Shown here: piece by piece, positions 6,801 to 46,415 of the stretch
How positions within the stretch are numbered: position 1 is the stretch's first letter
Layout: each line of letters starts with the position of its first letter
Assembly (NCBI GenBank): GCA_948469315.1
Contig: CAOKLQ010000004.1
Location: 3,517 to 67,516 of the forward strand
Origin: an uncultured Clostridium sp.
GTDB taxonomy: Bacteria > Bacillota > Clostridia > TANB77 > CAG-508
DNA: 64,000 bases
Reading direction: 5' to 3'
Position numbers and translations under genes: made by a program
The notes under the pieces: generated by a model
The model's database searches: none
What the model was told of the DNA's origin: nothing
Seen by the model: only the letters and a program-made list of their open reading frames with translations

Positions 6801-8990
6801 TGTTCCACCTGCTCCTGCAAAAATTTGCGTAAATAAAGATTTTCTACTTGCATTAATATTTATTCCAACTTTTGGTTGTATAAGTGCGTGACCTTTTACA
6901 ACTCTTTTATTTTCTATAATAGGTGTATTTAATATATGTGCCATTGCACCTACTAACTCATATGCTGAATTTAAACTTAAATCTGTATCTGCATCTAAAG
7001 TTATTATATATTTTATTTGTGGAATAGATTTTTTATCTATTGTATTTACAATAAAATCTGAATCTTGTTTATTTAAAACATATTCATTAAATTGAGTAAG
7101 CAGTCCTCTTTTTCTTTCCCAGCCTAAATAAGACTCTTCTGCTTGGTTCCATACTCTTTTCCTATACAAAAAATGAAATTTTGGAAATTCATCTAAACTA
7201 TATTTTTTATTTAGTTCTTCTACTAATTTTTGCCCTTCTTCTATTACCTCATTGTCTATTGCTTCTTTTTCATATTTAGAACTTGTACAATCTCCAAGTA
7301 GTGCAAAATATAGATTTTGGCTTTTATTTGCTAGATAATATACTTCTAATTTATGCATTAATTCTTTAACTTTTTGCTTATTTCCTACTATTGTAGGTAT
7401 TACAACAAAAGTTGCCTCAGTCTTTGGTATTCCTTCTGAAAAATCCATTTTAGGAAGTCGTTTTGGTTTTACTGTTTTTCCTAGAATATATTGCATAATT
7501 TGAATTACTATTTCAGTAATTGGAATATATAAAAATAGGCTTAAAATTAGAGAGCATATTAAGTTTGTTTTTTGATATATTGGATAATTTAATAAAAATG
7601 TGATAATTATTGAAATTATTGCTGCTATTGCTACATATATTTTAGATTTTGTATGTGTGCTTAAATGCAATATTTTGTTTTTTCTACCTATATTTAGTGC
7701 TTTTATTAATTCTGATTCTCCATCTGATATTAGGTAGTAACCTACGTGGCATTTGATGTCCTGTTCGTTAATATTAATTCGTTCATCGTTTGTATGTGGA
7801 GTATCGATTTTGATTTCGTTTTTTGAGTCGCCCAAAGTAGCGACCCCTACGTTATGTCTGTCCTTAATATTATTGTCATTTTCTATGTTGTTTGTATTTG
7901 ATTTTGGTTTTATTGTTTGGTTGTTATATGCATTTGTTGCAAGTTCTATTGCAGTTTGTGCAATGTATATTTCTGATATTTTGGTTTTTTTAGATATTTG
8001 TTGTATTTTGTTTCTGTACATTTCTTTTGTTTCGTAATCCATATTTTCATATATTTTTAATGGATCTTCTTTTAAAATTTCTTCTACTCCATTTAGGTTT
8101 TCAAATATTTCTAAAAAATTCATTCTATTTAAACGTTTTATTGATAAAATACTATTTGCCATTGATATTTTCTTTATAGCTATGTCAAAATGTTCTTTTT
8201 GTATTACATCTGATATAGTATTTCCCATTTTATTTACTTGTGTTTCAACTATATCTAAAAATACTTTTGCTTTTTTTCCTATCTTTTTTAATTTATAAGA
8301 TATATGCTCTATAAAAGGGTATTTTAGCTCTCCATATCCTAATTTACTTGTTTTTTTTGTTACATCATTTTTATATATTTGCTCATCTTTTTTTCTTGTT
8401 TCAACTAATCTTTCTACAATTGATTCTGCTCTATATTTTTGTATTTGACTTGAATATATTTTTTCACATATATTTGCAATATTTTGTATTAAAACTATTT
8501 TTAAAAATGTTCCTATATTCCAAATTTCGTTCATACTAAGAGATTTCTTTTTTTGATACGCTTTTAATGCTAAACTTAAATTTGTACTATTAATATTATT
8601 TTCAGTATATGCCAAAATTTCAGCAGCCAAAACATAAATACGAGCATATCCTTTATAATTTCCATTTGAAATAGATATTAAATTTTTATATTTACTTTTA
8701 GTAAGTTCTTTTTCAATTATTTTAACATTTTCTTCTATAATATAATAATTATCTAAAAGCCATTCACCTGCTGGATGTATATTTATTTTAAGTTTTATAT
8801 GTTCATTTAATAAATTATAAACTTTAGTAATAAAATCAAAATTTTCCATCATCTCTGGAATTGGGTATGTTTCCATACTAGAGTTATTTTCCAAAATATT
8901 ATCTGATGCAAATTTTTCTATATATTCTTCTAATTGATTTTTATCTAATAATGCTCCCTTTATATTTAAAATACCAAACATAAAAAACAT
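3804..8990 (-). CDS. N-terminal part of the cyclic beta-1,2-glucan synthase-like protein (membrane-embedded glycosyltransferase region plus linker domains)
   Basis: 1728-aa ORF with several hydrophobic segments and glycosyltransferase motifs ITLDADTDL and SRWTRGDWQ (QxxRW-like). It ends 15 nt after the CGG shift site. Confidence 0.75.
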   Translation of the reverse strand: MFFMFGILNIKGALLDKNQLEEYIEKFASDNILENNSSMETYPIPEMMENFDFITKVYNLLNEHIKLKINIHPAGEWLLDNYYIIEENVKIIEKELTKSKYKNLISISNGNYKGYARIYVLAAEILAYTENNINSTNLSLALKAYQKKKSLSMNEIWNIGTFLKIVLIQNIANICEKIYSSQIQKYRAESIVERLVETRKKDEQIYKNDVTKKTSKLGYGELKYPFIEHISYKLKKIGKKAKVFLDIVETQVNKMGNTISDVIQKEHFDIAIKKISMANSILSIKRLNRMNFLEIFENLNGVEEILKEDPLKIYENMDYETKEMYRNKIQQISKKTKISEIYIAQTAIELATNAYNNQTIKPKSNTNNIENDNNIKDRHNVGVATLGDSKNEIKIDTPHTNDERININEQDIKCHVGYYLISDGESELIKALNIGRKNKILHLSTHTKSKIYVAIAAIISIIITFLLNYPIYQKTNLICSLILSLFLYIPITEIVIQIMQYILGKTVKPKRLPKMDFSEGIPKTEATFVVIPTIVGNKQKVKELMHKLEVYYLANKSQNLYFALLGDCTSSKYEKEAIDNEVIEEGQKLVEELNKKYSLDEFPKFHFLYRKRVWNQAEESYLGWERKRGLLTQFNEYVLNKQDSDFIVNTIDKKSIPQIKYIITLDADTDLSLNSAYELVGAMAHILNTPIIENKRVVKGHALIQPKVGININASRKSLFTQIFAGAGGTDLYTNAIFDVYQDNFDEGIFTGKGIYDLEVFSKILKSQIPENTVLSHDLLEGSYLRCGLATDILLMDGYPYKYNSFMSRLSRWTRGDWQITRWMFGEIRVQNGEKIKNPLNFLSKFKILDNLRRSLFEITALATITLAILLKLKFNIKVGLIIFTSFISIITPMIMEFINIIIFKKEDEEHQRTFTPTITGINGVFLRAILTVSFAPHKAYVCLNAIVKTIYRKYISKKHLLEWTTSEEADKNSKTDFVSYYKSMFINVVFGAVSCLLAIYSILLYEKILYLVFAILWVLAPAISCYISKENKEKVKVYEVKKEDIEYIQDIGKNTWQYFKDTLNEKNNYLPPDNYQEQRKKKFVDRTSSTNIGLGLLTVISSYDLKYENFENTINLLEKMINVINSLQKWNGHLYNWYNICTLEPLIPRYVSTVDSGNFVGYLYVVKQFLENSKNDENEERLSYLIQILNDLIEKTDFTKVYDYKTGLFSIGFNVEDNKLTDSYYDLLASEARQASLVAISKGDIKPKHWRNLSRTLTSLKGYKGLISWSGTAFEYLMPNINIPSYEGSLLDESCKFMIMSQIEYSKKVGIPWGISESAFNLKDLHSNYQYKAFGIPWLGLKRGLEDEMVVSSYGSMLWLAQNPNQVIENIKQMENQGIKGKYGLYEAIDYTRSRLSSGKNSEVVKTFMAHHQGLILLSINNLINNNILQKRFSKNPEVQAIDILLQERMPESVIITKEKKEKPNKIKYQDYENYSQITFNKGDYELDKYNVISNENYSIIINQKGEGYSKYKDILINRYKQTSDNNQGIFFYIKNVNTKRIWTANYMNYLDKPDKYTSIFSADSTVINRFDGDIETTTKITVGIEKNIEIRQITLKNNGNQEEILEVTSSFEPIISEFNQDISHQAFNNLFLRYDMEDDNIILERRNRNKNVEKIFLGVSLYTEDETIGELEYEIDKEKFFGRGNICLPQMIKESKPFSKQLGLVTEPIVAMKKTIKIKPRSNCKA
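7825..7851 (-). repeat. REP-like GC-rich palindromic element with GTAGG head, in frame inside cgs
   Basis: Minus-strand reading is CGTAGGGGTCGCTACTTTGGGCGACTC, with stem GTCGC/GCGAC. It encodes HNVGVATLGDS within a low-complexity linker. Confidence 0.5.
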
Positions 8991-9268
8991 CTACTCCTTA
9001 AAATATGTATTTTAAGGTTAGTTTTTCCATGTTTGGTATTTTTTATTCAGTATGCAATTTTTATAATTTTTCTATTTCTTCTTTTTTTTATACTTTTTAT
9101 ATACAATATTTTATAAAAAAACATGCAATATTTTTCAAAAAAATGTTGCATATTTCTTTTTTTATTGTATAATTAAATTAATAATCACATATTATAGTTA
9201 ATAATTCCCCTGTCAATTCGAAGCTTTACGTTTAGTACGTAAAAGGTATATGTAGATGAGATGGGGGA

Positions 9269-10114
9269 TTATTGATTTTCTCGTTTTTTAGTAAGCTTTC
9301 TATAATATGTAGAATTACTTGGTATAAATTTCCAATGTCTATAAGGTATAGTCCAGGTATTCATATCATGTAAACCTGTCGATACTCCTATATTAAAATT
9401 AGGATGAATCTCTCTAATTCTTTCTAATATATGTTTATAGAGTTTTTCTTTAGCAATAGTCTTTTTTCCTCTTTTATTACTGCTAGATAGTTTTTCTTTA
9501 TGAAAGTTATTTAATCTAAAATTAATTGAACCCAATATTATATCCATACACTGTAAAATAACATGGTTATGTGAAACTACTTCTGCTATGTTTTCTTTCT
9601 TTATATGAATATTGTTATCTTTAAATATATTTACATGATTTAATCCATATACAAAATCTATAAAAGTATTATTTCTATTTGGCGTATTAGGCAATTTATC
9701 AAAATAAAATCTAATATCAATTTCTTTATTTTTTAATGGATTACTATTTTCAAAACCAAACGCCCATTTTACAAATTGGTAATAAAGTAAATAGTATTCA
9801 TTATCTATTTGATTATCTGTTAAGTCATTTGCAATATAACAAACAGGTTTAAACATAATTCTAATTTTTATTTTACTTTCTTTTATATAATCAAAAAATA
9901 AATTTATTATTTCTTTATATTTTTCTAAATAACTCTCAGTTACTTTAGACCATTTTATTTCTCCAAATAAATTTAATTCTTCTTTCTTTTTATTTAAAAT
10001 TGTATTTAACTTGTTAATTTGTTTTGCATTAACAATAGCACCACCATAGAAATTTCCAAAATATTTCCCTTTTTTAGCTGATTCATCACAATATACAATA
10101 TATTCTTCTTTCAA
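9269..10114 (-). CDS. DUF3800-like protein
   Basis: 281-aa ORF. The N-terminal IVYCDESAKKG and C-terminal ILQCMDIILG blocks resemble the DUF3800 pattern as I recall it. Confidence 0.5.
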   Translation of the reverse strand: MKEEYIVYCDESAKKGKYFGNFYGGAIVNAKQINKLNTILNKKKEELNLFGEIKWSKVTESYLEKYKEIINLFFDYIKESKIKIRIMFKPVCYIANDLTDNQIDNEYYLLYYQFVKWAFGFENSNPLKNKEIDIRFYFDKLPNTPNRNNTFIDFVYGLNHVNIFKDNNIHIKKENIAEVVSHNHVILQCMDIILGSINFRLNNFHKEKLSSSNKRGKKTIAKEKLYKHILERIREIHPNFNIGVSTGLHDMNTWTIPYRHWKFIPSNSTYYRKLTKKRENQ

Positions 10115-10208
10115 TCATTCACCTCTTCTATTTGTAATTGTTTATATGTATTTGATATTAATATTTTTATTTTCTTGAAGTATAAATTTCTAATTATTAA
10201 CTTACAAA

Positions 10209-10769
10209 TTATGTAATATCATTTTCCTTTACATTTAAAGCATTTGATATAACTTCAATTTTTTTCCCAGAATTGTATGTAATTAAAACATGTACAAAAT
10301 ATATTTTATTACTTTCTATATTTGTTGTAATTGTTCCTAAAATAGTGTCTTCATCTCCAAAAATTATCTCATTTACATTTGCTTGCTCCCATTTATCTGA
10401 ATTAGTACCTATATTCTTTTTAGTATTATTAATTATATATTTGCAGTTACTAATATCTTGATTTTTTATTTCTACACTGGCTTTTGCTTCAAAATTATCC
10501 TCTGCACTTTTTACTATATCTTTATTTTGCCATTTTATATTTGCAATATCTGTATAATTACTTTTGCTATATTGTTCTTGCTTTTCATTATATATTTCAT
10601 TTACTAAATTTACATCTTTTTGATAATGCTCTATCAAACTTAAATCTGCTGTTTTTTGAGCTTTTCTTGCATTACTGCTAGATACAAATATTCCCATTAA
10701 TATTATTACAAAAAACAGCATAACTGTAAGAGTAAATACAGTTATAGAACCCTTCTCACTTTTTAACAT
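10209..10769 (-). CDS. Hypothetical membrane-anchored protein
   Basis: 186-aa ORF. The N-terminal KGSITVFTLTVMLFFVIILMGIF resembles a Tad/pseudopilin-type signal anchor; the rest has no recognisable motif. Confidence 0.5.
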   Translation of the reverse strand: MLKSEKGSITVFTLTVMLFFVIILMGIFVSSSNARKAQKTADLSLIEHYQKDVNLVNEIYNEKQEQYSKSNYTDIANIKWQNKDIVKSAEDNFEAKASVEIKNQDISNCKYIINNTKKNIGTNSDKWEQANVNEIIFGDEDTILGTITTNIESNKIYFVHVLITYNSGKKIEVISNALNVKENDIT

Positions 10770-10835
10770 ATATTTTCCTCCATTTGCTTTAAATTATTAT
10801 ACTATATTTATAAATTATTTCAAGATTTTTTAAGG

Positions 10836-10979
10836 AAAAAGCGAATTTTAAAATTTCTAAGTGGTAGTAACCACAAAGAAATTTTAGCAATTCTCATAAT
10901 TATCTTCTACCAAAATTTCTCATTTCTTATGAAAAATTTTCTAGAATATAAAAAAGGTGTAGCAAATGCCACACCTTTT
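10836..10979. repeat. Structured intergenic element, family B copy 1 (candidate small RNA)
   Basis: Shares blocks CTAAGYGRTAGTAA, CATAATTNTCTTCTAC, AAATTTCTCAT...ATGARAAATTT and CTAGAATATAAAAAAG with 32446-32600. It ends in the hairpin GGTGTAGC...GCCACACC. Confidence 0.55.
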
Positions 10980-10992
10980 AGAATCGGATTTT

Positions 10993-11268
10993 TTACTTCT
11001 TATTTTTTAAAACTTTCTTACATGCATCTATTATTAACATAATTACTGCACGTACTCCCATAACTGCCATTGCAAATATAATTGCAACTGCTATAAGACC
11101 AATTCCTATTGCTACTCCTCCTCCAATTGCAAGAAATATATTGTATTTTGTTACTATAGCATAAACTATAGCCCATAATACACATATACCTATTACTGCA
11201 AATAGCTGTTTCATAGGAGTTTCATCAATTCCAGTTAACCAAATAAAGTTTTTTATCCGTTTCATCAT
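10993..11268 (-). CDS. Small hydrophobic membrane protein
   Basis: 91-aa ORF with two long hydrophobic stretches. It contains an in-frame CGG at codon 4. Confidence 0.45.
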   Translation of the reverse strand: MMKRIKNFIWLTGIDETPMKQLFAVIGICVLWAIVYAIVTKYNIFLAIGGGVAIGIGLIAVAIIFAMAVMGVRAVIMLIIDACKKVLKNKK

Positions 11269-11510
11269 TTTCTTTTCCTCCCTTTTAATGTTAATTTTTT
11301 TATTGTTACTAAAGAAATTTTCCTTTGCACTATTTAAGTGTTTAAGAATAATTCTAATTTCCTTATGTTTCTATTATAACATATAATTTACATAATTTTC
11401 AAGTTAATTGCTAAAAATTATTGTAATATTATGTAAAACATGTTATACTAATATCATTATTAATTACATATTAAAAACATACAATAATATTATTACAAGG
11501 AGGAATTTAT

Positions 11511-12449: not shown

Positions 12450-12485
12450 TAAAATTAACTTTATTTTCTAAAAGTATGTATTTTT

Positions 12486-20738: not shown

Positions 20739-21073
20739 AAAAATTATATGTTCACAAAAAGACCTAAGAGTTTTGAAACTCTTAGGCCTTTTTTATATAT
20801 CTAGTTACAATTCACAGTTGTTAAAATACAATATTATTAAATATGTATTGTAGGGTCCATTATCAATCCCCGTTCTTCTAAAGATTTGCCAAAAAATATA
20901 ATATTAATATTTCTTCAATATAATTTTTTATATATTGCTTTTTGGGCTGTAAATTGTAACTATATGTAATGAAAAATGTCGAATATTGTTTATTTTTAAT
21001 TGACATAGATAATAAAATAATTTATACTTATATAGTAAATTGCAAATTGTAAAATATTAGGAGGTAATTAATA

Positions 21074-28256: not shown

Positions 28257-28283
28257 CAGGACGTAGCACGCTACGCCCCTACA
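28257..28283 (-). repeat. REP-like GC-rich palindrome with GTAGG head
   Basis: Minus-strand reading is TGTAGGGGCGTAGCGTGCTACGTCCTG. Same stem family as 42167-42194, with paired base changes. Confidence 0.55.
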
Positions 28284-31682: not shown

Positions 31683-32267
31683 ATGATAGTAAAAAATCCA
31701 AAATTTGAAATTTCAGCAGTAAGTCAAAAGCAATATCCAAAAAATAACTTACCAGAAGTTGTTTTAGTTGGAAAATCTAATGTTGGAAAATCAAGTTTTA
31801 TAAATACAATGATTAACAGAAAAAAACTTGCAAGAACAAGTAGCGAGCCTGGTAAAACAAGACAATTAAACTTTTACAATATTGACGATAAATTTTACTT
31901 TGTAGATCTTCCAGGATATGGGTATAGTAAAATGAGTAAAAAAGAGCAATTACAAGTTGGAAAATTTACAGAAGAATATTTATTTAGTAGAAAACAAATT
32001 GTCTTAATTATCTTCTTAGTAGATATTAGGCATAAACCAACTGAGAATGACAAACTTATGTACAATTATGTTATAAGTTCAAAATTACCATTTATAATAC
32101 TTACAAATAAAGCAGATAAAATAGCTATAACTAAAGTAGATGATACTTGCAAAAAAATTCAAAAGGACTTAAATCCTATTGGAGATGCAATTTGTCTTCC
32201 ATTTTCTGCTGAAAGAAAAATTTATATCCAAGATGTCTGGAAAGAAATTTACAAAATTTTTGATTAA
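31683..32267 (+). CDS. engB: Ribosome biogenesis GTPase YsxC/EngB
   Basis: 194-aa ORF with G1 GKSNVGKSS, DLPGYG and NKADK motifs. Confidence 0.9.
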   Translation: MIVKNPKFEISAVSQKQYPKNNLPEVVLVGKSNVGKSSFINTMINRKKLARTSSEPGKTRQLNFYNIDDKFYFVDLPGYGYSKMSKKEQLQVGKFTEEYLFSRKQIVLIIFLVDIRHKPTENDKLMYNYVISSKLPFIILTNKADKIAITKVDDTCKKIQKDLNPIGDAICLPFSAERKIYIQDVWKEIYKIFD

Positions 32268-32327
32268 TTTAATAAAAAAAGATTAATATATTTTTACGTA
32301 GCAACAATTCGGGGGGACCGACAAGTT

Positions 32328-32385
32328 ACAATCTGCTAAAAATAATAAAATTTAAACTTCAATTTTATTATTTTTAGCAGATTGT
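32328..32385. repeat. Perfect 24-bp inverted repeat with a 10-nt loop
   Basis: ACAATCTGCTAAAAATAATAAAAT / ATTTTATTATTTTTAGCAGATTGT, enclosed by an outer GCAAC/GTTGC pairing and G-rich flanks. No T run follows it. Confidence 0.6.
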
Positions 32386-32445
32386 TCGTGGTTGGGAGTT
32401 GCAGTAAATATATTAATTCTTTTTAGCAATCAAATAAAATAAAAC

Positions 32446-35682: not shown

Positions 35683-35814
35683 TTAGGCTCTATCTTCTTT
35701 TTTATCTCTTTCTTGATTTATAACAATATTATTAAATAATTCTTCTATATTATATTTTGAGTTAAATTCTTCTAATTTCTTATTTTTCTCAGTATCATCT
35801 TCTCTTTTTAACAT
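35683..35814 (-). CDS. Possible small acidic protein (43 aa)
   Basis: Below the track cutoff. SD AAAGGAGAA precedes ATG 35814. Translation is MLKREDDTEKNKKLEEFNSKYNIEELFNNIVINQERDKKEDRA. Confidence 0.25.
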   Translation of the reverse strand: MLKREDDTEKNKKLEEFNSKYNIEELFNNIVINQERDKKEDRA

Positions 35815-35841
35815 TTGGTTCTCCTTTCTTTTTTCTAATGA

Positions 35842-35899
35842 CAGGGGACACACCTTTTTCTAGGGATATTCTTTGTAGTTCAAGGTATGTCCCACTACG
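35842..35899 (-). repeat. REP-like element, long-loop variant
   Basis: Arms GGGGACACACC and GGTATGTCCC, followed by ACTACG. Same arm family as 42167-42194. Confidence 0.45.
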
Positions 35900-35946
35900 C
35901 ATATGTTTTACCTATGTCATAACATTAGCGAGTTATATATTTACAA

Positions 35947-35981
35947 CGCTTTGTGGGTCGCCGAAGGCGTCGACTCCTACA
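35947..35981 (-). repeat. REP-like element overlapping the rsmA stop codon
   Basis: Minus-strand reading is TGTAGGAGTCGACGCCTTCGGCGACCCACAAAGCG, which aligns with the cgs copy CGTAGGGGTCGCTACTTTGGGCGACTCAAAAAACG. Its TGTAG supplies the final ATG and the TAG stop of rsmA. Confidence 0.5.
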
Positions 35982-38608: not shown

Positions 38609-38653
38609 AAACGAATCGATGAGGTTGAAGGCCCCTACATTGTTTGATTCGTT
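38609..38653 (-). repeat. REP-like element inside a 9-bp inverted repeat
   Basis: AAACGAATC...GATTCGTTT encloses GAGGTTGAAGGCCCCTACA (minus-strand head ATGTAGGGGCC). It lies downstream of comM. Confidence 0.45.
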
Positions 38654-38667
38654 TTTCTTTTTATATT

Positions 38668-39141
38668 CTAATTAAAATATTTCCTATCTAAACTTCTATA
38701 TTGTATTGCTTCTGCTATATGTTTTGCTTCTATATTTTCTTTTTCATCTAAATCTGCTATTGTTCTTGCAACTTTTAAAATTCTATCATGTGCTCTGGCG
38801 CTTAGGTTTAGCTTTTCAAATGCACTTTTTAGTATTTTCTTTCCTGCTTCATCTAATTTGCAGTATTTTTGCGTAAGTTTTGGAGTTAGTTCTGAATTAG
38901 AAAATATTTTATGTTTTTTGTATCTATCTAATTGTATTTTTCTTGCTTTGTTTACTCTTTGTCTAATTTTACTTGAGCTTTCACTTTTAGTATCTGATTC
39001 TAATTTATTATATTTAACCCCTGATACTTCAACTTGAATATCTATTCTATCTAATAATGGGCCACTTATTTTTCCCATATATCTTGAAATGGTAGTTTCT
39101 GAACATGTGCACTCTTTACTATCAGATCCGATAATATCCAC
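38668..39141 (-). CDS. comM: ComM/YifB (Mg-chelatase-like AAA+) C-terminal part; joined by a +1 shift at CGG 39128-39130
   Basis: Skipping a C in TAT-CGG-A joins ...NPCPCGYY to [31 protein letters not shown]. Confidence 0.8.
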
Positions 39142-39517
39142 AAGGACAAGGATTTAGTGATACAACTAGCATACAATTACATGGATATGTTAGGCTTGCA
39201 TTTACTCTTGAAATTGATATTTGCTTATCTTCTAAAGGTGTTCTCATTACTTCTAATGTATTTTTATTAAACTCTGTAAGTTCATCTAAAAATAATACTC
39301 CATAATGTGATAGACTTATTTCTCCTGGTTTTGGTATCCTACCTCCTCCTACTAATGATACAGAAGAAATTGTGTGATGCGGAGATCTAAATGGTCTTGA
39401 TACTATAAGTGGTGTATCATTTTTTAATAAACCTGCTATGCTATGTATTTTAGTTATTTCTAGTGCTTCTTCAAAACTTAAATTTGGAAGTATTGTTGGA
39501 ATTCTTCTTGCCATCAT
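39122..39517 (-). CDS. comM: ComM/YifB middle part; joined upstream by a +1 shift at CGG 39525-39527
   Basis: Skipping a C in TCA-CGG-A restores the Walker A motif [19 protein letters not shown]. Confidence 0.8.
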
Positions 39518-40202
39518 TGTTTTTCCGTGATCCTGGTGAGCCTACAAGCATTACATTATGTGCTCCACTTGCTGCAACTTCTATTGCTCTTTTTACATTT
39601 TCTTGTCCTTTTACCTCCGAAAAATCTAATAGGTACTTACTCTCTATCTCAAATAAACTTTCTACATCTACATTTTCTGACTCAATTTTTATTTCTCCAT
39701 TTAATAGTTTTACAACTTGAGATAAATCGTTTGCTGGCAAGACTTCAATATCTCTTACTATTGCTGCTTCTTTTGCATTTTCTTTTGGGATTATAACTTT
39801 TTTTATTCCAAGTTTTGAAGCTTCTATACACATTGGTAAAACTCCATTTACTTTATTTAACTTACCATCTAAAGACAATTCTCCTATAAATATATAATTT
39901 GATAAATCTTTATCTATTATATTTTCCATAGCTTTTAAAATCCCTATTGCTATTGGCAAATCGAATAAAGAGCCTTCTTTTTTGGTATTTGCAGGTGATA
40001 AATTAACAATTATTTTTCTACTTTCAAAATTTAATCCTGAATTTTTTATTGCAGTTCTTACTCTATCTTTTGATTCTTTTACACTTATATCTGGCAAGCC
40101 TACTACATCAAAACTTGGCATTCCTGCTGAAACATCTACTTCTACATTTATTAAATATCCATCTAATCCATGTAGACCCATACTTTGCACTATTGATAAC
40201 AT
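39471..40202 (-). CDS. comM: ComM/YifB N-terminal part (Lon-protease-like domain)
   Basis: Translation is [25 protein letters not shown]...[10 protein letters not shown]. Start taken at ATG 40202, which follows AGGAGGG. Confidence 0.8.
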
Positions 40203-40212
40203 TTTCCCTCCT

Positions 40213-40295
40213 AAAAAACAAAGGAGCAACACATATTGCATGTAGTAGACAAAAGCCTATTACTACAATATGTTTTGCTCCCTATATAATTTTTT
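40213..40295. repeat. ~85-bp hairpin repeat, family C copy 1
   Basis: AAAAAACAAAGGAGCAACACATATTG...CAATATGTTTTGCTCCCTATA. On the minus strand it reads as a terminator (stem followed by CTTTGTTTTTT). Confidence 0.75.
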
Positions 40296-40651: not shown

Positions 40652-40671
40652 TAAAATTCCCCCTTTTTTAT

Positions 40672-40947: not shown

Positions 40948-41008
40948 TCCTCCTTTATTATAACAAATTTAACTTATTAGTTGCAATAGATTTTTTTGTA
41001 TTTTTTAT

Positions 41009-41095
41009 AAAAAACAAAAGAGCAAGACATATTGTAGTAATAGAAAAAAACCTATTACTGCAATATGTTTTGCTCCCTATATTTATTTTTTATAT
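41009..41095. repeat. Family C copy 2 (direct repeat of 40213-40295)
   Basis: AAAAAACAAAAGAGCAAGACATATTG...CAATATGTTTTGCTCCCTATA. Together with copy 1 it brackets the two-gene cassette. Confidence 0.75.
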
Positions 41096-41204
41096 TTTTA
41101 TCATACTTTTTCTTAACTTTCAAGTATAATCGTTCGACATTTTTTGGCATTTTTTTCAATTGACAATTTAAATTTATATTTATATAATTTTAAAAGAATG
41201 TTTT

Positions 41205-42158
41205 ATGGAGGTTATAATAATGTCTTCTTACGAATTTGATTTTTATGATAAAACAAGCTTAAAATCTTATAATTTAACATCTAGTATGAGATATCAGCTT
41301 TCTATGTTAGATAAATTAGATGTTTTTACTAAAAAACACTGTGAAAATGTTGCAAGTATAGTTTGTAGAATATGTGAATATTTACATTTAAATAAAAACT
41401 TCACTTCTTATTGCACTATTTGTGCATATTTACATGATATTGGAAAATTATTTATTCCTCCAAAAATTTTACAAAAACCAGGTAAGCTTACAGATGAAGA
41501 ATATGAAATTATAAAAACACATACTTTAATTGGTTATAAAATGTGTATGGATGATTTGCAATTAAGACCTTATGCACTAGGTGCTAAATACCATCATGAA
41601 TGTTTAGATGGAAGTGGATATCCTGAAGGGTTACAAGGAAAACAAATTCCTTTAGAAGATCAAATTATAAAAGTTGCAGATGAATATGATGCAATTGTTT
41701 CTAAACGTCAATACAAAACACATGTTAATATATCTGATACTTTGAAAATATTAATAAAAGAAGCTCAGCCTTCAAATAAAGAAATTGCATTAGATAATGC
41801 AGCAAGTCGTGCAAAAGTTGGAAAGCTTAATAAAAAGGTTGTAAAAACTTTATTTAAAGTTGTTATTGAAGACACTGAGTATGAAATTAGTTGTTTAACT
41901 GGATATTTAGATTTTTTAAAAGAACAAATTAAAAGATTAAATACTATTTTGGATTATGAAATAAAAATGAATAATGCTACTAATGAAAAAAAGAAAAATT
42001 ACTTTAAAGAAGGTATGAAACTTCTATTTTCTGAAGGTGAAAATTACGATAATTATCAGACAGTTCTTGAAGAATATAAAACTGCATTAAAAGAAAGACA
42101 AAAGATTATAGATGATTTATATAATGAAATCAAAATTATTAAAAAATTAAAGGTATAA
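41205..42158 (+). CDS. HD-GYP domain phosphohydrolase (putative c-di-GMP phosphodiesterase)
   Basis: 317-aa ORF with YLHDIGK (HD) and KYHHECLDGSGYPEGL (HHExxDGxGYP). Confidence 0.8.
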   Translation: MEVIIMSSYEFDFYDKTSLKSYNLTSSMRYQLSMLDKLDVFTKKHCENVASIVCRICEYLHLNKNFTSYCTICAYLHDIGKLFIPPKILQKPGKLTDEEYEIIKTHTLIGYKMCMDDLQLRPYALGAKYHHECLDGSGYPEGLQGKQIPLEDQIIKVADEYDAIVSKRQYKTHVNISDTLKILIKEAQPSNKEIALDNAASRAKVGKLNKKVVKTLFKVVIEDTEYEISCLTGYLDFLKEQIKRLNTILDYEIKMNNATNEKKKNYFKEGMKLLFSEGENYDNYQTVLEEYKTALKERQKIIDDLYNEIKIIKKLKV

Positions 42159-42166
42159 ATATTTTA

Positions 42167-42194
42167 TAGGGACATAGCACGCTATGTCCCTACA
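42167..42194 (-). repeat. REP-like GC-rich palindrome with GTAGG head
   Basis: TAGGGACATAGC-AC-GCTATGTCCCTA is a perfect 12-bp stem. No flanking T run on either strand. Confidence 0.6.
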
Positions 42195-42215
42195 AAAATA
42201 TTTATTTAATTTAAA

Positions 42216-42576
42216 TTATTCCTCTAACCCAAAGCTTACTCCTAAAGCATTATTTATTTTATCTATAACACTATTATCTTCTATATGACCTATTTTTTCT
42301 TTTAATCTACTTTTATCTATTGTTCTAATTTGCTCTGTTAGTATTATTGAATCTGATTTTAGCCCGACTGCTTACTGAATCTATTTCTATATGTGTTGGG
42401 AGTTTATTTTTTGTTTTTTGGGATGTTATAGCAGCTGCAATTACTGTTGGACTATATTTATTTCCCATATCATTTTGAATTATTAATACTGGTCTTACTC
42501 CACCTTGTTCTGAACCTACTACAGGGCTTAAATCTGCATAGAACATATCTCCTCTTTTTATTATCATTTTCTTCAC
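42216..42576 (-). CDS. mazF: MazF/PemK (EndoA-like) endoribonuclease toxin; needs a +1 shift at CGG 42364-42366
   Basis: [31 protein letters not shown]...[10 protein letters not shown] then CGG. Skipping the C continues [49 protein letters not shown]. Confidence 0.8.
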
Positions 42577-42656
42577 TCCCGCAATTAAAATATTTAAAAC
42601 AAATTTTTAAAATATTTTAAATATTAGTTCGAGATAAAGAATTGTTATATTTTAGT

Positions 42657-43277
42657 TTATATTTTTAATTCTATCTCATTATATACTATGTAAACTTTTA
42701 ATTTTTGGTTAATATCTTCTATCTTCATTTTTGTAGGTTTTCCTGTTTTTTTATCTATATATAGTATTTTATTTACTAAGTATTTATTATTTTTCTTTAT
42801 TTTTGTTTTCATTATTATTTGACTATCTTTTTCTTCTATTTTTGATTCTTCTGATTCTTTATAATTTTTAACAAATGTATTTAAAAATAAATGATTCTCT
42901 GTAATATAATTATAATTTTCGTATATTTTTGTAAGGTTTAATTTTGTATTGTTTATACTTAAATTACTTCCATCATTTGTTATTGTTAATCCTTCAATAT
43001 TACTTGGCTCTAGTACTACTTGTTTTGCTATGTTAGGACTTGTATATTGTTGATCTAAAATATATTTATTTTCATTTTTATTACTATTTATTGTAACTTC
43101 TATTTTAGCATTATATGAATTAATATTTAAAATATTTTGGGAAATTTCATCTTTTGAATTTCCAATATTAGTATTTCCAAAACTTGATTTTTTATAATTA
43201 TTTTTTGTAAAAATTATAGCTACAATTATAATTATTATGATAATTGCAAATATAAAATATTTTTTGCTCTTTTTCAT
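42657..43277 (-). CDS. Hypothetical membrane-anchored protein (possibly YdcC/LolA-like)
   Basis: 206-aa ORF with an N-terminal hydrophobic anchor. A position upstream of mazF is reminiscent of the B. subtilis ydcC neighbourhood. The call is weak. Confidence 0.45.
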   Translation of the reverse strand: MKKSKKYFIFAIIIIIIIVAIIFTKNNYKKSSFGNTNIGNSKDEISQNILNINSYNAKIEVTINSNKNENKYILDQQYTSPNIAKQVVLEPSNIEGLTITNDGSNLSINNTKLNLTKIYENYNYITENHLFLNTFVKNYKESEESKIEEKDSQIIMKTKIKKNNKYLVNKILYIDKKTGKPTKMKIEDINQKLKVYIVYNEIELKI

Positions 43278-43296
43278 TTTTACCTCCTATTATTTT

Positions 43297-43375
43297 AAAC
43301 GGACAAACGCAAGGCTTGCCCCTACAGGTATAAATTTTATTTTATATATGTAGAGGTAAACCCTTGCGTCTACTC
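43297..43375. repeat. Inverted doublet of REP-like elements (REPIN-like)
   Basis: ACGCAAGGCTTGCCCCTACA (43307-43326) and TGTAGAGGTAAACCCTTGCGT (43349-43369) face each other across an AT-rich 22-nt spacer. Confidence 0.6.
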
Positions 43376-43392
43376 TTTTTATTCATTTATAT

Positions 43393-43851
43393 TCACAATT
43401 TTTTAAAATATTCTGTTAATTCATTTATTATCTCTTGCTTTGTTTCTAATGTATTTATCTTTTGCCTCATTTGACTTGAATCTTTTAGATTTTTTATATA
43501 CCAACTTAGCTGTTTTCTCATTTCTCTTATACCTATGTATTCTCCTTTTTGCTCTATTTCCATTTTTAAATGCCTTTTTATCATATTTAGTTTTTCTTCT
43601 AATGTAGGCTCATTTAGCTTTTCTCCTGTTTTTAGATAATGTGTTATTTGTTTAAAAATCCAGGGATTTCCAAAAGATGCTCTTCCTATCATTATTCCAT
43701 CTACCCCAGTATACTCAAACATTTCTTTTGCTGATATCTCATCTACAATATCTCCATTTCCTATAACAGGAATATTTACTGCTTGTTTTACCTTTTTTAT
43801 TATATCTAAATCTACTTTTCCGTGAGTAAAAATCTGCTCTTGTTCTTCCAT
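43393..43851 (-). CDS. dusB: tRNA-dihydrouridine synthase, C-terminal part; joined by a +1 shift at CGG 43820-43822
   Basis: Skipping a C in TCA-CGG-A joins ...HGRTRADFYS to GKVDLDIIKKVKQAVNIPVIGNGDI. Confidence 0.85.
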   Translation of the reverse strand: MEEQEQIFTHGKVDLDIIKKVKQAVNIPVIGNGDIVDEISAKEMFEYTGVDGIMIGRASFGNPWIFKQITHYLKTGEKLNEPTLEEKLNMIKRHLKMEIEQKGEYIGIREMRKQLSWYIKNLKDSSQMRQKINTLETKQEIINELTEYFKKL

Positions 43852-44368
43852 GTATAACTAAGCTTGACGCTCCTGCACCTTCAAATATTTTAGCAGCTTC
43901 TACTGCAATAACATTTTGGTTATTCCAACCTTTCCTAAATTTAACTGTTACTGGCCTTTTAGATGCTTTAACAACAGTTTCTACTATTTTTCCTGCCAAA
44001 TCTAAATTTAATAATAATTTGCTTCCATCTCCATTTTTTACAACCTTAGGTGCTGGACACCCCATATTTATATCTATTATATTAGTATATTTGCTTACAT
44101 ATTTGCTAGCATATTCTATAGCTTCTAAATCACTTCCAAATAATTGTATAGATATTGGCTTTTGCTCATTTTCTGTATCTAATAATTTTTTTGTTTTTTC
44201 ATCATTATAAAATATTGCTTTACTACTTACCATTTCTGTTGTGGCAAGCCCTGCACCTTGCTCTTTACACAAAATTCTAAATGGCAGGTCTGTAATACCT
44301 GCCATTGGTGCTAATATTATATTATTTTCTAATTCTACGTTTCCTATTTTTAATTTTTTTAAATACAT
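43739..44368 (-). CDS. dusB: tRNA-dihydrouridine synthase, N-terminal part
   Basis: Contains LAPMAGITDLPFRILC and IDINMGCPAPKV, the TIM-barrel Dus motifs. Confidence 0.85.
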   Translation of the reverse strand: MYLKKLKIGNVELENNIILAPMAGITDLPFRILCKEQGAGLATTEMVSSKAIFYNDEKTKKLLDTENEQKPISIQLFGSDLEAIEYASKYVSKYTNIIDINMGCPAPKVVKNGDGSKLLLNLDLAGKIVETVVKASKRPVTVKFRKGWNNQNVIAVEAAKIFEGAGASSLVIHGRTRADFYSRKSRFRYNKKGKTSSKYSCYRKWRYCR

Positions 44369-44616
44369 TTTGTTTTTCCTTATTAATTATTATATTTACA
44401 AACAAAATAATAATAATTTTTGAAAAATTTTGATTGAAGGTAATTGAATTAAAAATTGTTGAAGGTATTTTAGGGAAAATGTTCAATTTTACATTGAAAG
44501 GGTGCCCTAAAATTCAATTACAATTTCTTATGAGATTAGCCTGAACGATGAATTTTGAAAAAATTCATTATTATTTTGTATTTTATATTATAAAATAAAT
44601 TATAGCCTTTAGTATT

Positions 44617-45724
44617 CTATTCAATAAATATAGATTTTTGTCTTCTTCCACTAATATTCATTAAAATTGCAAGCAAAATAAAATTAGTTAAAAGCGAGCT
44701 TCCGCCGTAGCTTACAAATGGAAGTGGTACTCCTGTAATTGGTAATAATCCCATTGTCATTCCTATGTTTTCTATCATATGAAATAAGAATATTCCTGCT
44801 ATTCCCATTGCAATATATGTTCCCAAATCATCTTTTGCAGTTTTTGCTATATATACTGCTTTTGTAATTAAAACTACATATGTTATAATAACTGCTCCTG
44901 CTATTATAAATCCCATTTCTTCGCTTATTACAGAAAATATAAAGTCTGTAGTTTTTGGATATAAAAATCCTAATTGTGTTTGATTTCCTTTTAATATTCC
45001 CATTCCAAATAACTTTCCTGCTCCAATTGCAAGTTTTGATTGAATTATATTATAACCTGATCCTCTTGCATCTGATTCTGGATTCAAAAATACCTGTATT
45101 CTAGATTTAGCATGTGTTGGTAGTACAAAATTATATAAAATTGGCAATGCAACTAAAATTACTATCATTGTTCCAATTATATATTTCTTATCTAAACCTG
45201 CTATTAATAATATTAATGCTGTTGCAACTAAAAATGCCATTTCTGTTCCATAGTCTGGCTGTTTTATTATTAATAATACTGGAACTACAACTATTGATAA
45301 ACATGATATTAATTTTACTGGTGCATTTATTTCGTTTTGGTCTTTTTCTTGAATTCTACATATTACAGTTGCCATTAATAATATAACACATATTTTTGCA
45401 AATTCTGCTGGTTGAAATGTAAATACTTTTAAATCAAACCAACTACTAGCTCCATTTATAGGTTTTGTAAATAAAACCGCTATTAGCAAAATTATACTTA
45501 TTCCGATAAAAAATAGGAGAAAATTTCGATATTACCTCATAATCTATAAAAATTATTGCAAATACCATTGGTATACAAATTATAAACCAAATTAATTGTT
45601 TTTGCAGACTATCAAAACCACTATCATGTGTTGCTGAAAATAATGCTATTGTTCCTACCACACATAGTATTATAGCACATATAAAAATTCCCCAATCTAT
45701 ATTTTTTAGAATTCTTCTTTTCAT
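44617..45724 (-). CDS. rodA: FtsW/RodA/SpoVE family peptidoglycan polymerase; needs a +1 shift at CGG 45503-45505
   Basis: Two track ORFs. Skipping a C in TAT-CGG-A joins ...SKFSPIFY to GISIILLIAVLFTKPINGASSWFD. The order minD-minE-rodA is typical of Clostridia. Confidence 0.8.
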
Positions 45725-45752
45725 TGTATACCTCTATTCTTTTGAACCTACA

Positions 45753-46415
45753 TTAATTTTGCATATTTTGATTTGGATTATTATTTGATGTATTTCCATT
45801 TGATGATTGTATTTGATTTAGCTCATCGTTAGAATTTGTTTGTATATCATTTAATATATTTTCTTCTGATTGCTTTGTGCTTTGTTCACTATTAGACGAA
45901 TCTATATTATTTGAATTATTTTCATTTTGTGTTTGTATTATATTTTGGTTATTATTTTCTATATTGTTTGACGTATTTTCGTTTGATGATTTTAATTCGC
46001 TCGTATTGTCTAGAACATCGACATCTACTTTGCTTGACATATCCTCATTTGATGGTTGTGTTTGGTTCTGACCTATGGAATCGCCCACCCCTACATTATT
46101 TAATGTTTTTTGATTTTCTTCCTTTATATTTACTATTGGTATATTTGCATATAATGCAGGTGCGCCTTTGCTTCCATCATCATTTTCTTGATTAGTTAAA
46201 CGTACATCTATCTGATTTTCATCAACATCTATATATTTTTTAATTACTTCTATTATTTCTTGTTTCATCATTTCTAAAAAGTCTGCTGAAACATTTGCTC
46301 TGTCTTGCATTAACACTAGATGTAATCTTTCTTTTGCTTCTTTTCCTGAATTATCTTCTTTAGGACTTTCTATCTTAAATAATTTTTTAAAAAAATTGTT
46401 TATATTTTCAAACAT
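45753..46415 (-). CDS. minE: Cell division topological specificity factor MinE with a long N/S/Q-rich C-terminal extension
   Basis: The N-terminal ~95 aa are MinE-like (KERLHLVLMQDRANVS...IDVDENQIDVRL). The remaining ~125 aa are low complexity. Confidence 0.8.
   Translation of the reverse strand: MFENINNFFKKLFKIESPKEDNSGKEAKERLHLVLMQDRANVSADFLEMMKQEIIEVIKKYIDVDENQIDVRLTNQENDDGSKGAPALYANIPIVNIKEENQKTLNNVGVGDSIGQNQTQPSNEDMSSKVDVDVLDNTSELKSSNENTSNNIENNNQNIIQTQNENNSNNIDSSNSEQSTKQSEENILNDIQTNSNDELNQIQSSNGNTSNNNPNQNMQN
46077..46095 (-). repeat. Short REP-like head sequence, in frame inside the minE tail
   Basis: Minus-strand reading is TGTAGGGGTGGGCGATTCC, encoding NVGVGDS. It shares GTAGGGGT and GGGCGAYTC with the cgs copy. 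Confidence 0.4.

Follow-up and report, generated by a model that had tools for sequence, protein, structure and literature searches.

The 64-kb window (64,000 nucleotides, the whole stretch of DNA analysed) carries several short GC-rich hairpins headed by a (T)GTAG tag, located next to or within genes such as lexA, ksgA/rsmA, dus and minE. The same combination recurs about 80 times in the 1.86-Mb gut Clostridia genome (26% GC) to which the window belongs. All sequences quoted in a preliminary description of this DNA were found at their positions when the minus strand was read. Most of the copies listed there are indeed REPs, of which three subtypes (A, B and C) can be told apart; 35842-35899 and 9236-9258 were rejected, the former being part of a separate, TIRtron-derived repeat family of ~110 nt (family D) and the latter of a known RNA motif. 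The features of the window are as follows.

7825..7850, minus strand: intragenic REP GTAGGGGTCGCTACTTTGGGCGACTC, read in frame as VGVATLGDS in a 1728-aa ORF (3804..8990)
9204..9270, plus strand: DUF3800-VIII RNA motif, not a REP, adjoining a DUF3800 gene (9269..10114, minus strand)
20849..20886, plus strand: decayed type C REP TGTAGGGTCCATTATCAATCCCCGTTCTTCTAAAGATT, tail CGTTCTTC..A.GATT kept, stem broken
28259..28283, minus strand: type B REP TGTAGGGGCGTAGCGTGCTACGTCC, beginning 10 nt past the lexA stop codon
35822..35936, minus strand: family D element, a MITE-like repeat of ~110 nt with the hairpin GGGACATACC...(30 nt)...GGTGTGTCCCC
35956..35981, minus strand: type A REP TGTAGGAGTCGACGCCTTCGGCGACCC, whose tag supplies the ksgA/rsmA stop codon (TAG, 35977-35979)
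38609..38653, minus strand: degenerate type A REP in the comM-dprA spacer, leader ATCAAACAATGTAGGGG kept, inner hairpin lost
42168..42194, minus strand: type B REP TGTAGGGACATAGCGTGCTATGTCCCT, near 'double foot', between a convergent HD-domain gene (plus strand) and small gene (minus strand)
about 43297..43375: facing (tags-inside) REP pair downstream of dus, 43300-43326 on the minus and 43349-43373 on the plus strand
46077..46095, minus strand: decayed REP head TGTAGGGGTGGGCGATTC, translated in frame as VGVGDS where the minE low-complexity tail begins

Relatives comprised 60 genomes (61 with the window genome, G000). In the closest congeners the orthologous sites were empty, held an ordinary AT-rich terminator or held a different REP, and the REPs are therefore lineage-specific insertions rather than terminators conserved in place. 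After lexA, G011 has an empty site and G025 and G019 have another hairpin, and a GTAG REP followed lexA at none of 80 metagenome lexA loci. The second type B copy is predicted to fold as DNA at -9.6 kcal/mol (z = -8.2). Its site is occupied by another GTAG REP in G021, by a hairpin headed TTAGG in G011 and by an AT-rich terminator with a T run in G019; the paired change said to distinguish this copy from the one after lexA is real. About 155 nt including the type A REP are missing after ksgA in G021, G025, G019 and G011, and in the same four genomes comM and dprA abut, the insert of ~75 nt being missing. Downstream of dus, where the facing pair (folded as 43296-43378) forms one long REPIN-like hairpin (-17.5 kcal/mol, z = -5.5), AT-rich intrinsic terminators are found in G021 and G011. 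The intragenic REP lies within an insert of ~57 residues (about 7752-7922); the matches on either side are adjacent in seven congeners, and the insert is therefore absent there. A search for same-species contigs returned none.

The two weak head-only matches of the preliminary description parted ways: 20849..20886 is a REP, albeit decayed and without a predicted fold (z = 0.2; intact type C copies for comparison lie at C1:6788 and C6:51070), while 9236-9258 lies inside a DUF3800-VIII RNA (RF03075 at 50.3 bits, gathering score 40.2) beside an ORF with PF12686. The head at 46077..46095 gives no fold.

Anatomy, abundance and orientation of the REPs

The word TGTAGGGG occurs 85 times genome-wide against 7.5 expected from base composition, and the reversed control word 13 times. 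Intergenic DNA (304 kb) contains it 60 times (0.85 expected), and there it is, Shine-Dalgarno words aside, the most over-represented frequent 8-mer. Within the window, enrichment of TGTAGGG is marginal (six against 2.6 expected; at least six in 2 of 100 shuffles). GTAG stands at the stem foot in 44 of the genome's 157 perfect GC-rich hairpins, with about four expected by our estimate, and is preceded by T in 70 of 78 copies. These counts bear out genome-wide the recurrence of GC-rich hairpins with a common GTAG head that had first been noticed in the window.

About 80 elements consisting of GTAGG(G) and a hairpin were listed, and the REP anatomy proposed for them in the preliminary description holds. 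The rule used in REP searches (Di Nocera 2013; Quentin 2018) asks for a GT[AG]G tetranucleotide 0-2 nt 5' of the foot of a short (20-40 nt), GC-rich palindrome whose stem base is fully paired and whose loop is small. The elements have the tag at the hairpin foot, stems of 7-11 bp, loops of 3-8 nt and basal pairs GGG..CCC, and intact copies have significant predicted folds. Covariation is seen across the 14 type B copies, four of which are identical: 99% of cells pair, compensatory changes occur at three of eight pairs, and on the tagged strand nine copies have G.T at the wobble position, five have A-T and none has A.C. Many type A copies have an extra conserved 12-nt leader, AATGTCAAACAA. The copies are dispersed over 25 or more contigs and are mainly extragenic and downstream of genes, as is typical of REPs (55 intergenic, 7 overlapping gene ends, 18 inside ORF calls). 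Inverted doublets, taken earlier as a hallmark, proved to be the exception: 62 of the 80 copies are singletons, and there are four inverted and five tandem pairs, an arrangement other than that of REPINs, in which inverted doublets predominate (Bertels and Rainey 2011). The earlier view that most of the hairpins are not simple terminators agrees with the presence of a T run in only 10 of the 80 copies, which as a class are not Rho-independent terminators, and with their lineage-specific insertion.

The median distance from the upstream stop codon is 39 nt, and 42 copies lie between same-direction genes. Among the 62 non-genic copies, 53 share the orientation of the upstream gene and 56 have the tag on the G-rich strand, i.e. 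the lagging-strand template; about 90% of copies run in the direction of both the upstream gene and the leading strand. Gene direction and skew can be separated in five copies alone, of which four follow the skew and one follows the gene. The TAG of the tag doubles as the stop codon in four genes. Single-strand Y1 transposition would be expected to produce this orientation bias, and RNA-level selection explains it equally.

RAYT genes in relatives and a relic in the window genome

Enrichment of TGTAGGGG is found in 12 of the 61 genomes. The type A arm GTAGGGGTCGRCGYC is present in nine of the 61 (100 copies in G025, 8 in the window genome; none for the control word), and types A and C are common to the window genome and the genomes with canonical RAYTs. 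Type B is private to the window genome; its search pattern yielded 12 copies there, one in G011 and none in the 59 other relatives. Short canonical RAYT genes or fragments were detected in G025, G031, G041, G019, G033 and G048 only, i.e. in 6 of the 12 tag-enriched and 0 of the 49 non-enriched genomes (Fisher p ~2e-5, our calculation). At G031:C7, G048:C5, G041:C32, G041:C22 and G031:C4 REPs of types A and C, the types seen in the window genome, flank the RAYT, which is the REPtron arrangement.

The RAYTs of the relatives carry the HuH (NHVH) and Y..NP (YIQNNP) motifs and the tag-contact motif IWQRNYYEHIIR, which matches the residues W94-Q95-x4-E100-H101-x2-R104 listed as GTAG contacts of E. 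coli TnpA-REP (PMC6006769); they align with that enzyme (PDB 4ER8) from HuH to Y at E = 1.4e-6. The genes of G025, G019, G033 and G041 encode 160-206 aa without a C-terminal extension, as in subclass 2.4, and contain REPs in frame (VGVGVPDDP / GSSRTPTPT); in-frame REPs in the RAYT gene and a stem foot of three G-C pairs have both been described for subclass 2.4. We regard these RAYTs as 2.4-like, an assignment made from such features rather than from the authors' subclass profiles. On the NCBIfam equivalog model NF047646 the short RAYTs score 50-65 bits, and none of the 61 genomes reaches the 80-bit cut-off.

No canonical RAYT, and no cognate REPtron, was found in the window genome, an assembly that is 95.5% complete in 51 contigs, so that a RAYT copy could be missed. 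Between rplI and dnaB (C4:111008-111061) there is a putative RAYT relic, the last 18 codons (VQYIQYNPLKWKEDKLYK with its stop), recognised by one 18-residue tblastn match (E = 0.002) with one of 12 queries. In most congeners the rplI-dnaB spacer is 15-35 nt long, and in G021 and G019 a REP lies in it; none of the relatives examined has a RAYT there. Among the other enriched genomes, G021, G026 and G049 have a long TIRYT-type Y1 gene only (G049 also an IS200-type gene), and G011 and G034 gave no Y1 match. In the literature, genomes with REPs but no tnpAREP are taken to have lost the gene. The link to RAYTs made in the preliminary description is thus sound for the relatives, where the same REP types flank canonical RAYTs, and is reduced in the window genome to the 18-codon relic.

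The intact TIRYT gene and family D

The sole intact Y1 gene of the window genome (C1:149820-150626, 268 aa) is a TIRYT (subclass 2.1) and not the REP-flanked transposase that the preliminary description proposed to look for. Its flanks are ~50-nt inverted repeats, 87% identical, with GGGGACAG/GGGGACATACC (consensus GGGGWSAS) and unrelated to the GTAG REPs, as in TIRtrons, where a RAYT-like Y1 gene has long GGGGWSAS inverted repeats instead of REPs. The gene is single-copy and syntenic in congeners, beside radA. It matches RAYT models weakly (58-60 bits against the NF047646 cut-off of 80 bits), the W-Q...E-H...R tag-contact motif is absent from its sequence, and neither a comparison with 4ER8 nor a Pfam search of its C-terminal extension gave a match. 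About 20 relatives without GTAG enrichment have TIRYT genes of the same type, and the literature records no REPs with subclass 2.1.

The family D element of the window, which immediately precedes the RBS of a conserved small ORF, is one of about 15-18 copies in the genome and is absent from the same site in four congeners; the strict family D pattern is met with at six loci in the window genome and at none in the 60 relatives. Its arm GGGACATACCTTAAA is identical over 15 nt to the inner inverted-repeat module flanking the TIRYT gene. Judged by this sequence identity, family D is derived from that module. The stem foot GGGAC...GTCC(C) is common to type B, family D and the TIRYT inverted repeats.

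Origin of the tagged hairpins

Taken together, the hairpins are very probably GTAG-tagged REPs of a subclass 2.4 / group 4 RAYT, orphaned in the window genome after loss of the RAYT. Their anatomy, enrichment and lineage-specific insertion, and in relatives the co-occurrence and REPtron arrangement of REPs and RAYT, are seen directly in the sequences; how the hairpins are cut and moved, when the RAYT was lost and what the hairpins may do as RNA are inferred. The (T)GTAG tag and the GGG/CCC stem foot would be the recognition signal of an HUH-Y1 RAYT, which would bind the folded single-stranded hairpin, cut beside it and rejoin it elsewhere, most likely on the lagging-strand template during replication. 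New copies would be seeded mainly just downstream of genes, where they may be tolerated and transcribed into mRNA 3' ends; those at the terminator sites of relatives probably have a role as 3' hairpins, either in stabilising mRNA ends or in transcriptional pausing or attenuation. REPs and RAYT probably arrived together in the clade of the window genome, as related genomes keep REP-flanked RAYT genes, and the window genome probably then lost the RAYT but for its last 18 codons between rplI and dnaB. With the RAYT lost and a relic left, the ~80 REPs would be an orphaned, partly decaying population. The intact TIRYT/TIRtron is a separate system, and the family at 35822-35936 arose from its inverted-repeat module.

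A primary role at the RNA level is unlikely in our judgement; the hairpins would then be terminators, attenuators or stabilisers of 3' ends which evolved in place or spread by recombination while a 3' hairpin was selected for, with the tag acting as an RNA-level signal, e.g. a stop-codon-containing or RNase site. Co-orientation with the upstream gene shortly past its stop codon, G.U wobbles on the sense strand, replacement of the relatives' AT-rich intrinsic terminators at the dus and HD-gene sites and the use of the tag's TAG as a stop codon would fit such elements, but T runs are scarce, many copies lie inside operons (comM-dprA, ksgA-small ORF) where the genes of relatives abut hairpin-free, and others lie in frame inside genes. 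Moreover, the same sequences flank or lie within the RAYT genes of relatives and their distribution tracks RAYT; an RNA role would account for retention, not origin.

That the intact TIRYT, rather than a lost RAYT, made or still makes these copies appears highly improbable. In its favour, it is the sole intact Y1 gene, the two families confined to the window genome (type B and family D) share their foot with the TIR modules, and the family D arm is identical over 15 nt to the inner TIR module. Against it, its counterparts in about 20 relatives are not accompanied by GTAG enrichment, it sits in synteny beside radA between its own TIRs, it lacks the tag-contact motif and any 4ER8 match, its subclass has no REPs in the literature, and types A and C occur also in genomes with canonical RAYTs. 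On the other hand, the privacy of type B and its four identical copies fit poorly with a RAYT that was lost long ago. A more limited role of the TIRYT, namely that it amplified both type B and family D once the canonical RAYT had gone, is conceivable but doubtful. If true, subclass 2.1, currently held to be non-REP-associated, would gain a substrate family, and one Y1 enzyme would have taken over the niche of another.

Returning to the reading as orphaned REPs, their closest counterparts are the GTAG REPs with subclass 2.4 TnpA-REP (RAYT group 4; Quentin et al. 2018, PMC6006769; Bertels et al. 2017, PMC5581495; Di Nocera et al. 2013, PMC3733652). Both have the same tag, a GC-rich hairpin with three basal G-C pairs, occasional 'double foot' copies and copies downstream of genes and in frame inside them; the REP-flanked RAYT with in-frame REPs is matched in the relatives of the window genome, and the patchy distribution with apparent gene loss leaving REPs is common to both. 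In the literature, subclass 2.4 is mainly recorded from Cyanobacteria, Bacteroidetes, Chlorobia and Caldilineae, and GTAG REPs mainly from Proteobacteria, Cyanobacteria, Chloroflexi and PVC; neither list names Firmicutes. No Firmicutes or Clostridia were found among the GTAG-REP hosts of Di Nocera 2013 (PMC3733652), in line with the earlier statement that no equivalent family was known from AT-rich Clostridia. Since ~80 copies are kept with only a relic of the enzyme, this is a known system (REPs with a subclass-2.4-like RAYT) in a host group new to the published surveys that were searched, and not a new system. The window genome differs from the published systems in its very low GC content, in the reduction of the enzyme to a relic, in the predominance of single copies with ~90% in one orientation and in the 12-nt type A leader.

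The E. coli REP/BIME system with TnpA-REP (RayT, 4ER8; Messing et al. 2012, PMC3479197) follows the same tag-plus-hairpin recognition logic, its tag-contact residues are conserved in the relatives' RAYT and REPs lie 3' of genes in both, whereas in E. coli the REP stems are longer and bulged and the elements form alternating BIME clusters or REPINs, in contrast to the short-stemmed, small-looped singletons or head-to-tail arrays of the window genome. The TIRYT/TIRtron (Di Nocera 2013; subclass 2.1, RAYT group 1) matches the Y1 gene of the window genome and not its GTAG REPs. Rho-independent terminators resemble the REPs as GC-rich hairpins soon after a stop codon, and at two sites a REP takes the place of a relative's terminator; the REPs differ in the lack of a T run (70 of 80), the conserved tag, their sequence families and their additional intra-operon and intragenic positions. 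At ~80, the copy number is towards the lower end of the range of REP families.

Tagged hairpins in the genome

The window is C4:3517-67516 of genome G000 (1.86 Mb in 51 contigs, 26.4% GC), which has very strong GC skew and gene strand bias (local skew ~0.2, one-strand genes 60-100%). All sequences quoted in the preliminary description were found, on the minus strand. The enrichment of the TGTAGGG head proposed there is unambiguous genome-wide but marginal within the window (6 occurrences vs 2.6 expected). Genome-wide, TGTAGGGG was observed 85 times, whereas base composition predicts 7.5 and the reversed word occurs 13 times; in DNA not covered by long ORFs (304 kb), its count is 60 and the expectation 0.85. 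Ranking of k-mers was confined to intergenic DNA because coding bias dominates a whole-genome ranking. A GC-rich inverted repeat directly follows TGTAGGG at ~100 out of 158 genome sites, and GTAG stands at the stem foot of 44 out of 157 perfect GC-rich hairpins, where we estimate that ~4 would be expected. In 70 of 78 copies, a T immediately precedes the tag. In total, ~80 convincing REPs (GTAG-tagged GC-rich hairpins) were identified, which fall into three subtypes; the copies at window positions 20849, 38609 and 46077 are decayed.

REP subtypes in G000
Type A: GTAGGGGTCGRCG..loop..CGYCGACCC
Type B: GTAGGGACRYRGCGTGCYRYGTCC; 14 copies, four identical
Type C: GTAGGGGCGATnnnnATCGCCCGTTCTTC

Type A hairpins often carry a conserved leader, AATGTCAAACAA, on their 5' side and an A-rich 3' tail (51% A, 24% T), and sometimes form head-to-tail arrays with a period of ~62 nt. 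The TTGACA on the reverse strand of the leader was considered as a promoter -35 box; such a promoter would fire antisense, the elements being co-oriented with the flanking genes. The paired changes noted between copies were borne out for type B: they are compensatory at three of eight pairs, and 99% of cells pair. One position is G.T in nine copies, A-T in five and A.C in none, indicating that the structure is kept on the tagged strand.

By place, 55 REPs are intergenic, 7 lie across a gene end and 18 are inside ORF calls. The non-genic copies are co-oriented with the gene on their 5' side in 53 of 62 cases, at a median of 39 nt past the stop codon, and their tagged strand is the G-rich strand in 56 of 62. 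Only five copies are informative on whether replication or transcription is the source of this orientation bias; four go with the skew and one with the gene. As initially described, most REPs are not followed by a T run, which was found after only 10 of 80. The REPIN-like facing pair at 43297-43375 exists and folds as one long hairpin, but such inverted doublets are not the typical arrangement: 62 of the 80 elements are singletons, which makes this pair atypical, and the pairs in the genome comprise four inverted and five tandem ones. Four genes end at a tag, their stop codon being the TAG within GTAG:

window 35977-35979: stop of ksgA/rsmA
C8:45155-45157: stop of upstream ORF
C17:25401-25403: stop of upstream ORF
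C30:2543-2545: stop of upstream ORF

The C-terminus of ksgA/rsmA in G000 is unlike that of the relatives.

Orthologous sites and distribution among relatives

The nearest congeners by KsgA identity are G021, G025 and G019 (~75%) and G011 (73%), and the synteny of the window is conserved in congeners. The hairpins are not conserved terminators, in agreement with the preliminary description, since the orthologous sites in relatives are empty, hold ordinary terminators or hold different hairpins. Past ksgA, G000 has ~155 extra nt that contain a type A REP and an element of family D, a ~110-nt repeat, where in these four relatives a small conserved ORF, with its RBS, follows directly. This ORF (MLKREDDTEKNKKLEEFNSKYNIEELFNNIV..., window ~35700-35815, minus strand) lies directly 3' of ksgA and is conserved in G021, G025, G019 and G011. 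Between comM and dprA, an insert of ~75 nt with a degenerate type A REP is present in G000; the two genes abut in all four relatives. The comM-like Mg-chelatase gene itself (window 38668-40241, minus strand) is in three overlapping ORFs (38668..39141, 39122..39517 and 39471..40241). Past lexA, the site is empty in G011 and occupied by an unrelated hairpin in G025 and G019, and no GTAG hairpin stands at this place in any of 80 metagenome lexA loci (76-92% identity). The metagenome scan with LexA gave no contigs of the same species, the best match being 92% identical, and an exact-protein look-up of DprA found no other strains' contigs on record. At the site past dus, the REP pair of G000 has AT-rich T-run terminators as its counterparts in G021 and G011. 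At the convergent HD-gene site, a different GTAG REP is found in G021 in identical place and orientation, a TTAGG-headed hairpin in G011 and an ordinary terminator in G019. The REP at 7825-7850 is within an in-frame insert of ~57 residues in a 1728-aa ORF; the flanking matches are adjacent in seven congeners, and the insert is therefore missing there.

Across 61 genomes, TGTAGGGG is enriched in 12, which span several families and genera; elsewhere its frequency is that of the background. Nine genomes have the type A arm GTAGGGGTCGRCGYC, which is absent from the 52 others; a control word gives zero. G000 has 12 matches to the type B pattern, G011 one and the 59 other relatives none.

Counts of the type A arm GTAGGGGTCGRCGYC by genome
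G025: 100
G026: 40
G019: 36
G021: 27
G048: 17
G033: 13
G000: 8
G031: 6
G041: 1

Y1 transposases and the origin of the REPs

The preliminary description linked the hairpins to a Y1 transposase flanked by such elements. A Y1 gene is present, but its flanks are its own inverted repeats and not these GTAG REPs. The sole Pfam Y1_Tnp gene of G000 (C1:149820-150626, 268 aa) scores 58 bits with the NCBIfam RAYT model, under the 80-bit cut-off, has no match among solved structures and is flanked by ~50-nt inverted repeats, GGGGACAGTCCCT..GGGGACATACCTTAAA. This is the arrangement that Di Nocera et al., 2013 (PMC3733652) describe as TIRYT/TIRtron, a Y1 gene with terminal inverted repeats (TIRs) instead of REPs, including their GGGGWSAS motif. 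Its counterpart in the scheme of Quentin et al., 2018 (PMC6006769) is subclass 2.1 (RAYT group 1, reported from Clostridia), for which those authors found no association with REPs. The TIRYT gene adjoins radA also in G025, G021 and G019. Because TIRYT-type genes occur in ~20 relatives without tag enrichment, the TIRYT is not the partner of the GTAG REPs. As the presence of the long Y1 gene showed no useful correlation with tag enrichment, we searched for short RAYTs, the cognate Y1 transposases of REPs.

In a search with the RAYT model, short Y1 genes (160-206 aa) or fragments of them were found only in G025, G031, G041, G019, G033 and G048. All six genomes are tag-enriched, and no short RAYT was found in the 49 non-enriched genomes (6/12 vs 0/49, Fisher p ~2e-5, the lineages not being fully independent). 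Other short Y1 matches in non-enriched genomes were rejected as RAYTs, being IS200 transposases with strong Pfam scores. The short RAYTs have the motifs NHVH, YIQNNP and IWQRNYYEHIIR, in the last of which W-Q-x4-E-H-x2-R are spaced exactly as the GTAG contacts of E. coli, and the G031 protein matches E. coli TnpA-REP (4ER8) with E = 1.4e-6. Several of the genes have inverted REPs of type A or type C at their flanks: the one on G031:C7 has three TGTAGGGGCGATTTTAATCGCCCG upstream and one inverted at its 3' end, and the one on G048:C5 has GTAGGGGTCGGCGTCCTCGACGACCCG, also found in G000, on both sides. Several also contain in-frame REPs, encoding VGVGVPDDP or GSSRTPTPT. Published hallmarks of subclass 2.4 include in-frame REPs within tnpAREP, 'double foot' copies and a stem with three G-C pairs at its foot; all three were found here too and are thus already known biology.

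In G025 and G019, a short RAYT-like gene is multi-copy (loci L082, L083, L088 and L092; G025:C11, C3 and C1, G019:C5), and two of these copies are frame-broken. The copies have in common a conserved upstream region of ~260 nt and an identical downstream gene (MAENEELKEAKEKLDKITEDE...), so that the gene seems to belong to a larger repeated unit rather than to be a single domesticated gene.

Apart from REP-coded peptides, a tblastn search of G000 with the short RAYTs gave one match, VQYIQYNPLKWKEDKLYK*, sharing 14 of 18 residues with the G031 RAYT C-terminus (E = 0.002):

C4:111008-111061, minus strand: RAYT relic of 18 codons, filling the rplI-dnaB spacer, outside the window

We read this sequence, a short match in an assembly that is 95.5% complete, as what probably remains of a RAYT gene that this lineage has lost. 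Such a loss would fit the small and partly decayed type A population (eight exact arms vs 100 in G025). The spacer is 15-35 nt long in most congeners and holds a REP in G021 and G019; an intact RAYT at this site was not found in 18 relatives. In G033, the spacer (locus L212, G033:C61) has an inserted near-perfect palindrome of ~150 nt, GACCAATTGGGGACGTTTCTCAATTGGACA...TGTCCAATTGAGAAACGTCCCCAATTGGTC.

The best-supported account is that the REPs were made by a RAYT resembling subclass 2.4, which would act on single-stranded hairpins to give REP copies, and that they were orphaned when the enzyme was later lost in G000. The alternative of a purely RNA-level origin of the hairpins does not explain the copies within operons and genes, and leaves the RAYT link unaccounted for. 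Retention just past genes and the replacement of ordinary terminators at two sites nevertheless suggest that the REPs may have a secondary role as 3' hairpins. That the TIRYT amplified types A and C is unlikely; it may have amplified type B and family D, the two families private to G000. Family D (~15-18 copies, usually directly upstream of an RBS) has a strict hairpin pattern matched at six loci in G000 and at none in the 60 relatives, and its arm GGGACATACCTTAAA is identical to the inner module of the TIRtron inverted repeats; two such modules joined would give a hairpin like that of family D. GTAG precedes the arm in only some copies, and the hairpin at 35842-35899, listed initially among the GTAG elements, is a family D core. 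A further long palindrome (GGGACAGTCCCCAATCCGACA..TGTCGGATTGGGGACTGTCCC; GGGACAGTCCCCAATCCGACAnnnTGTCGGATTGGGGACTGTCCC) has ~5 copies in G000 and is similar to the TIRs that flank the TIRYT genes of G021 and G019:

C8:8367-8411: copy of GGGACAGTCCCCAATCCGACAnnnTGTCGGATTGGGGACTGTCCC
C5:66518-66550: copy of GGGACAGTCCCCAATCCGACAnnnTGTCGGATTGGGGACTGTCCC
C2:93400: copy of GGGACAGTCCCCAATCCGACAnnnTGTCGGATTGGGGACTGTCCC
C2:93916: copy of GGGACAGTCCCCAATCCGACAnnnTGTCGGATTGGGGACTGTCCC
C5:91951: copy of GGGACAGTCCCCAATCCGACAnnnTGTCGGATTGGGGACTGTCCC

Host range and other elements of the window

Published surveys report GTAG-REP hosts from Proteobacteria, Cyanobacteria, Chloroflexi and PVC, and the Clostridia RAYTs mentioned in the literature are of group 1 (TIRYT-type) only. 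The earlier remark that no equivalent family was known from AT-rich Clostridia stood up to a full-text literature search, which gave no REP/RAYT description for Clostridia. Given these hosts and the known RAYT biology, this is a known kind of system in a new host group and in an instructive orphan state, not a new mechanism. Discussion of REPs and RAYTs has so far concerned almost entirely Proteobacteria and a few other phyla; the full system, which comprises REPtrons and tagged hairpins as well as an enzyme gene carrying in-frame REPs, is now seen in uncultured, very AT-rich gut Clostridia. Close relatives form a natural series from an active-looking end (G025, where RAYT is multi-copy and type A has 100 copies) through degraded RAYTs (G019, G033, G048) to orphaned REPs (G000), which is a useful setting for studying the decay of REP populations once the enzyme is lost and bears on whether REPs take over a terminator role. 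For annotators, REPs account for many GC-rich islands, odd gene ends where the tag supplies the stop codon, and short in-frame inserts.

The supposed weak REP match at 9236-9258 turned out to lie inside a DUF3800-VIII RNA (RF03075) beside a DUF3800 gene. Two further repeated elements, neither of which matches Rfam at gathering score, were observed: a conserved 19-copy element, AGAAACCGAAGGTGTCTTAAGTGGGATGGGATTAAAAGGTAAGGGCnnnGCCCTTGGCCTTTT, with a terminal nested hairpin and T run, and a structured-looking intergenic element of ~17 copies, TTATTATATTTTTTACGTAGTAACAATTCGGGGGGACCGACAAGTTACAAT...(hairpin)...TTGGGAGTTAC. A second conserved block, AACTTGCGAGCTCTTCGGGGGGACCGATGAGC..GGGGAGGAGCGAGCAAG, stands ~150 nt before some AGAAACCGAAGGTGTCTTAAGTGGGATGGGATTAAAAGGTAAGGGCnnnGCCCTTGGCCTTTT copies.

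window 9204-9270, plus strand: DUF3800-VIII RNA, at the 3' end of the DUF3800 gene (ORF 9269..10114, minus strand), on the opposite strand
window ~13808, 16254, 17238 and 22192 (C4:17324, 19770, 20754 and 25708): AGAAACCGAAGGTGTCTTAAGTGGGATGGGATTAAAAGGTAAGGGCnnnGCCCTTGGCCTTTT element, 15 more genome-wide
window ~32200-32420 (C4:35828): TTATTATATTTTTTACGTAGTAACAATTCGGGGGGACCGACAAGTTACAAT...TTGGGAGTTAC element, ~16 more genome-wide
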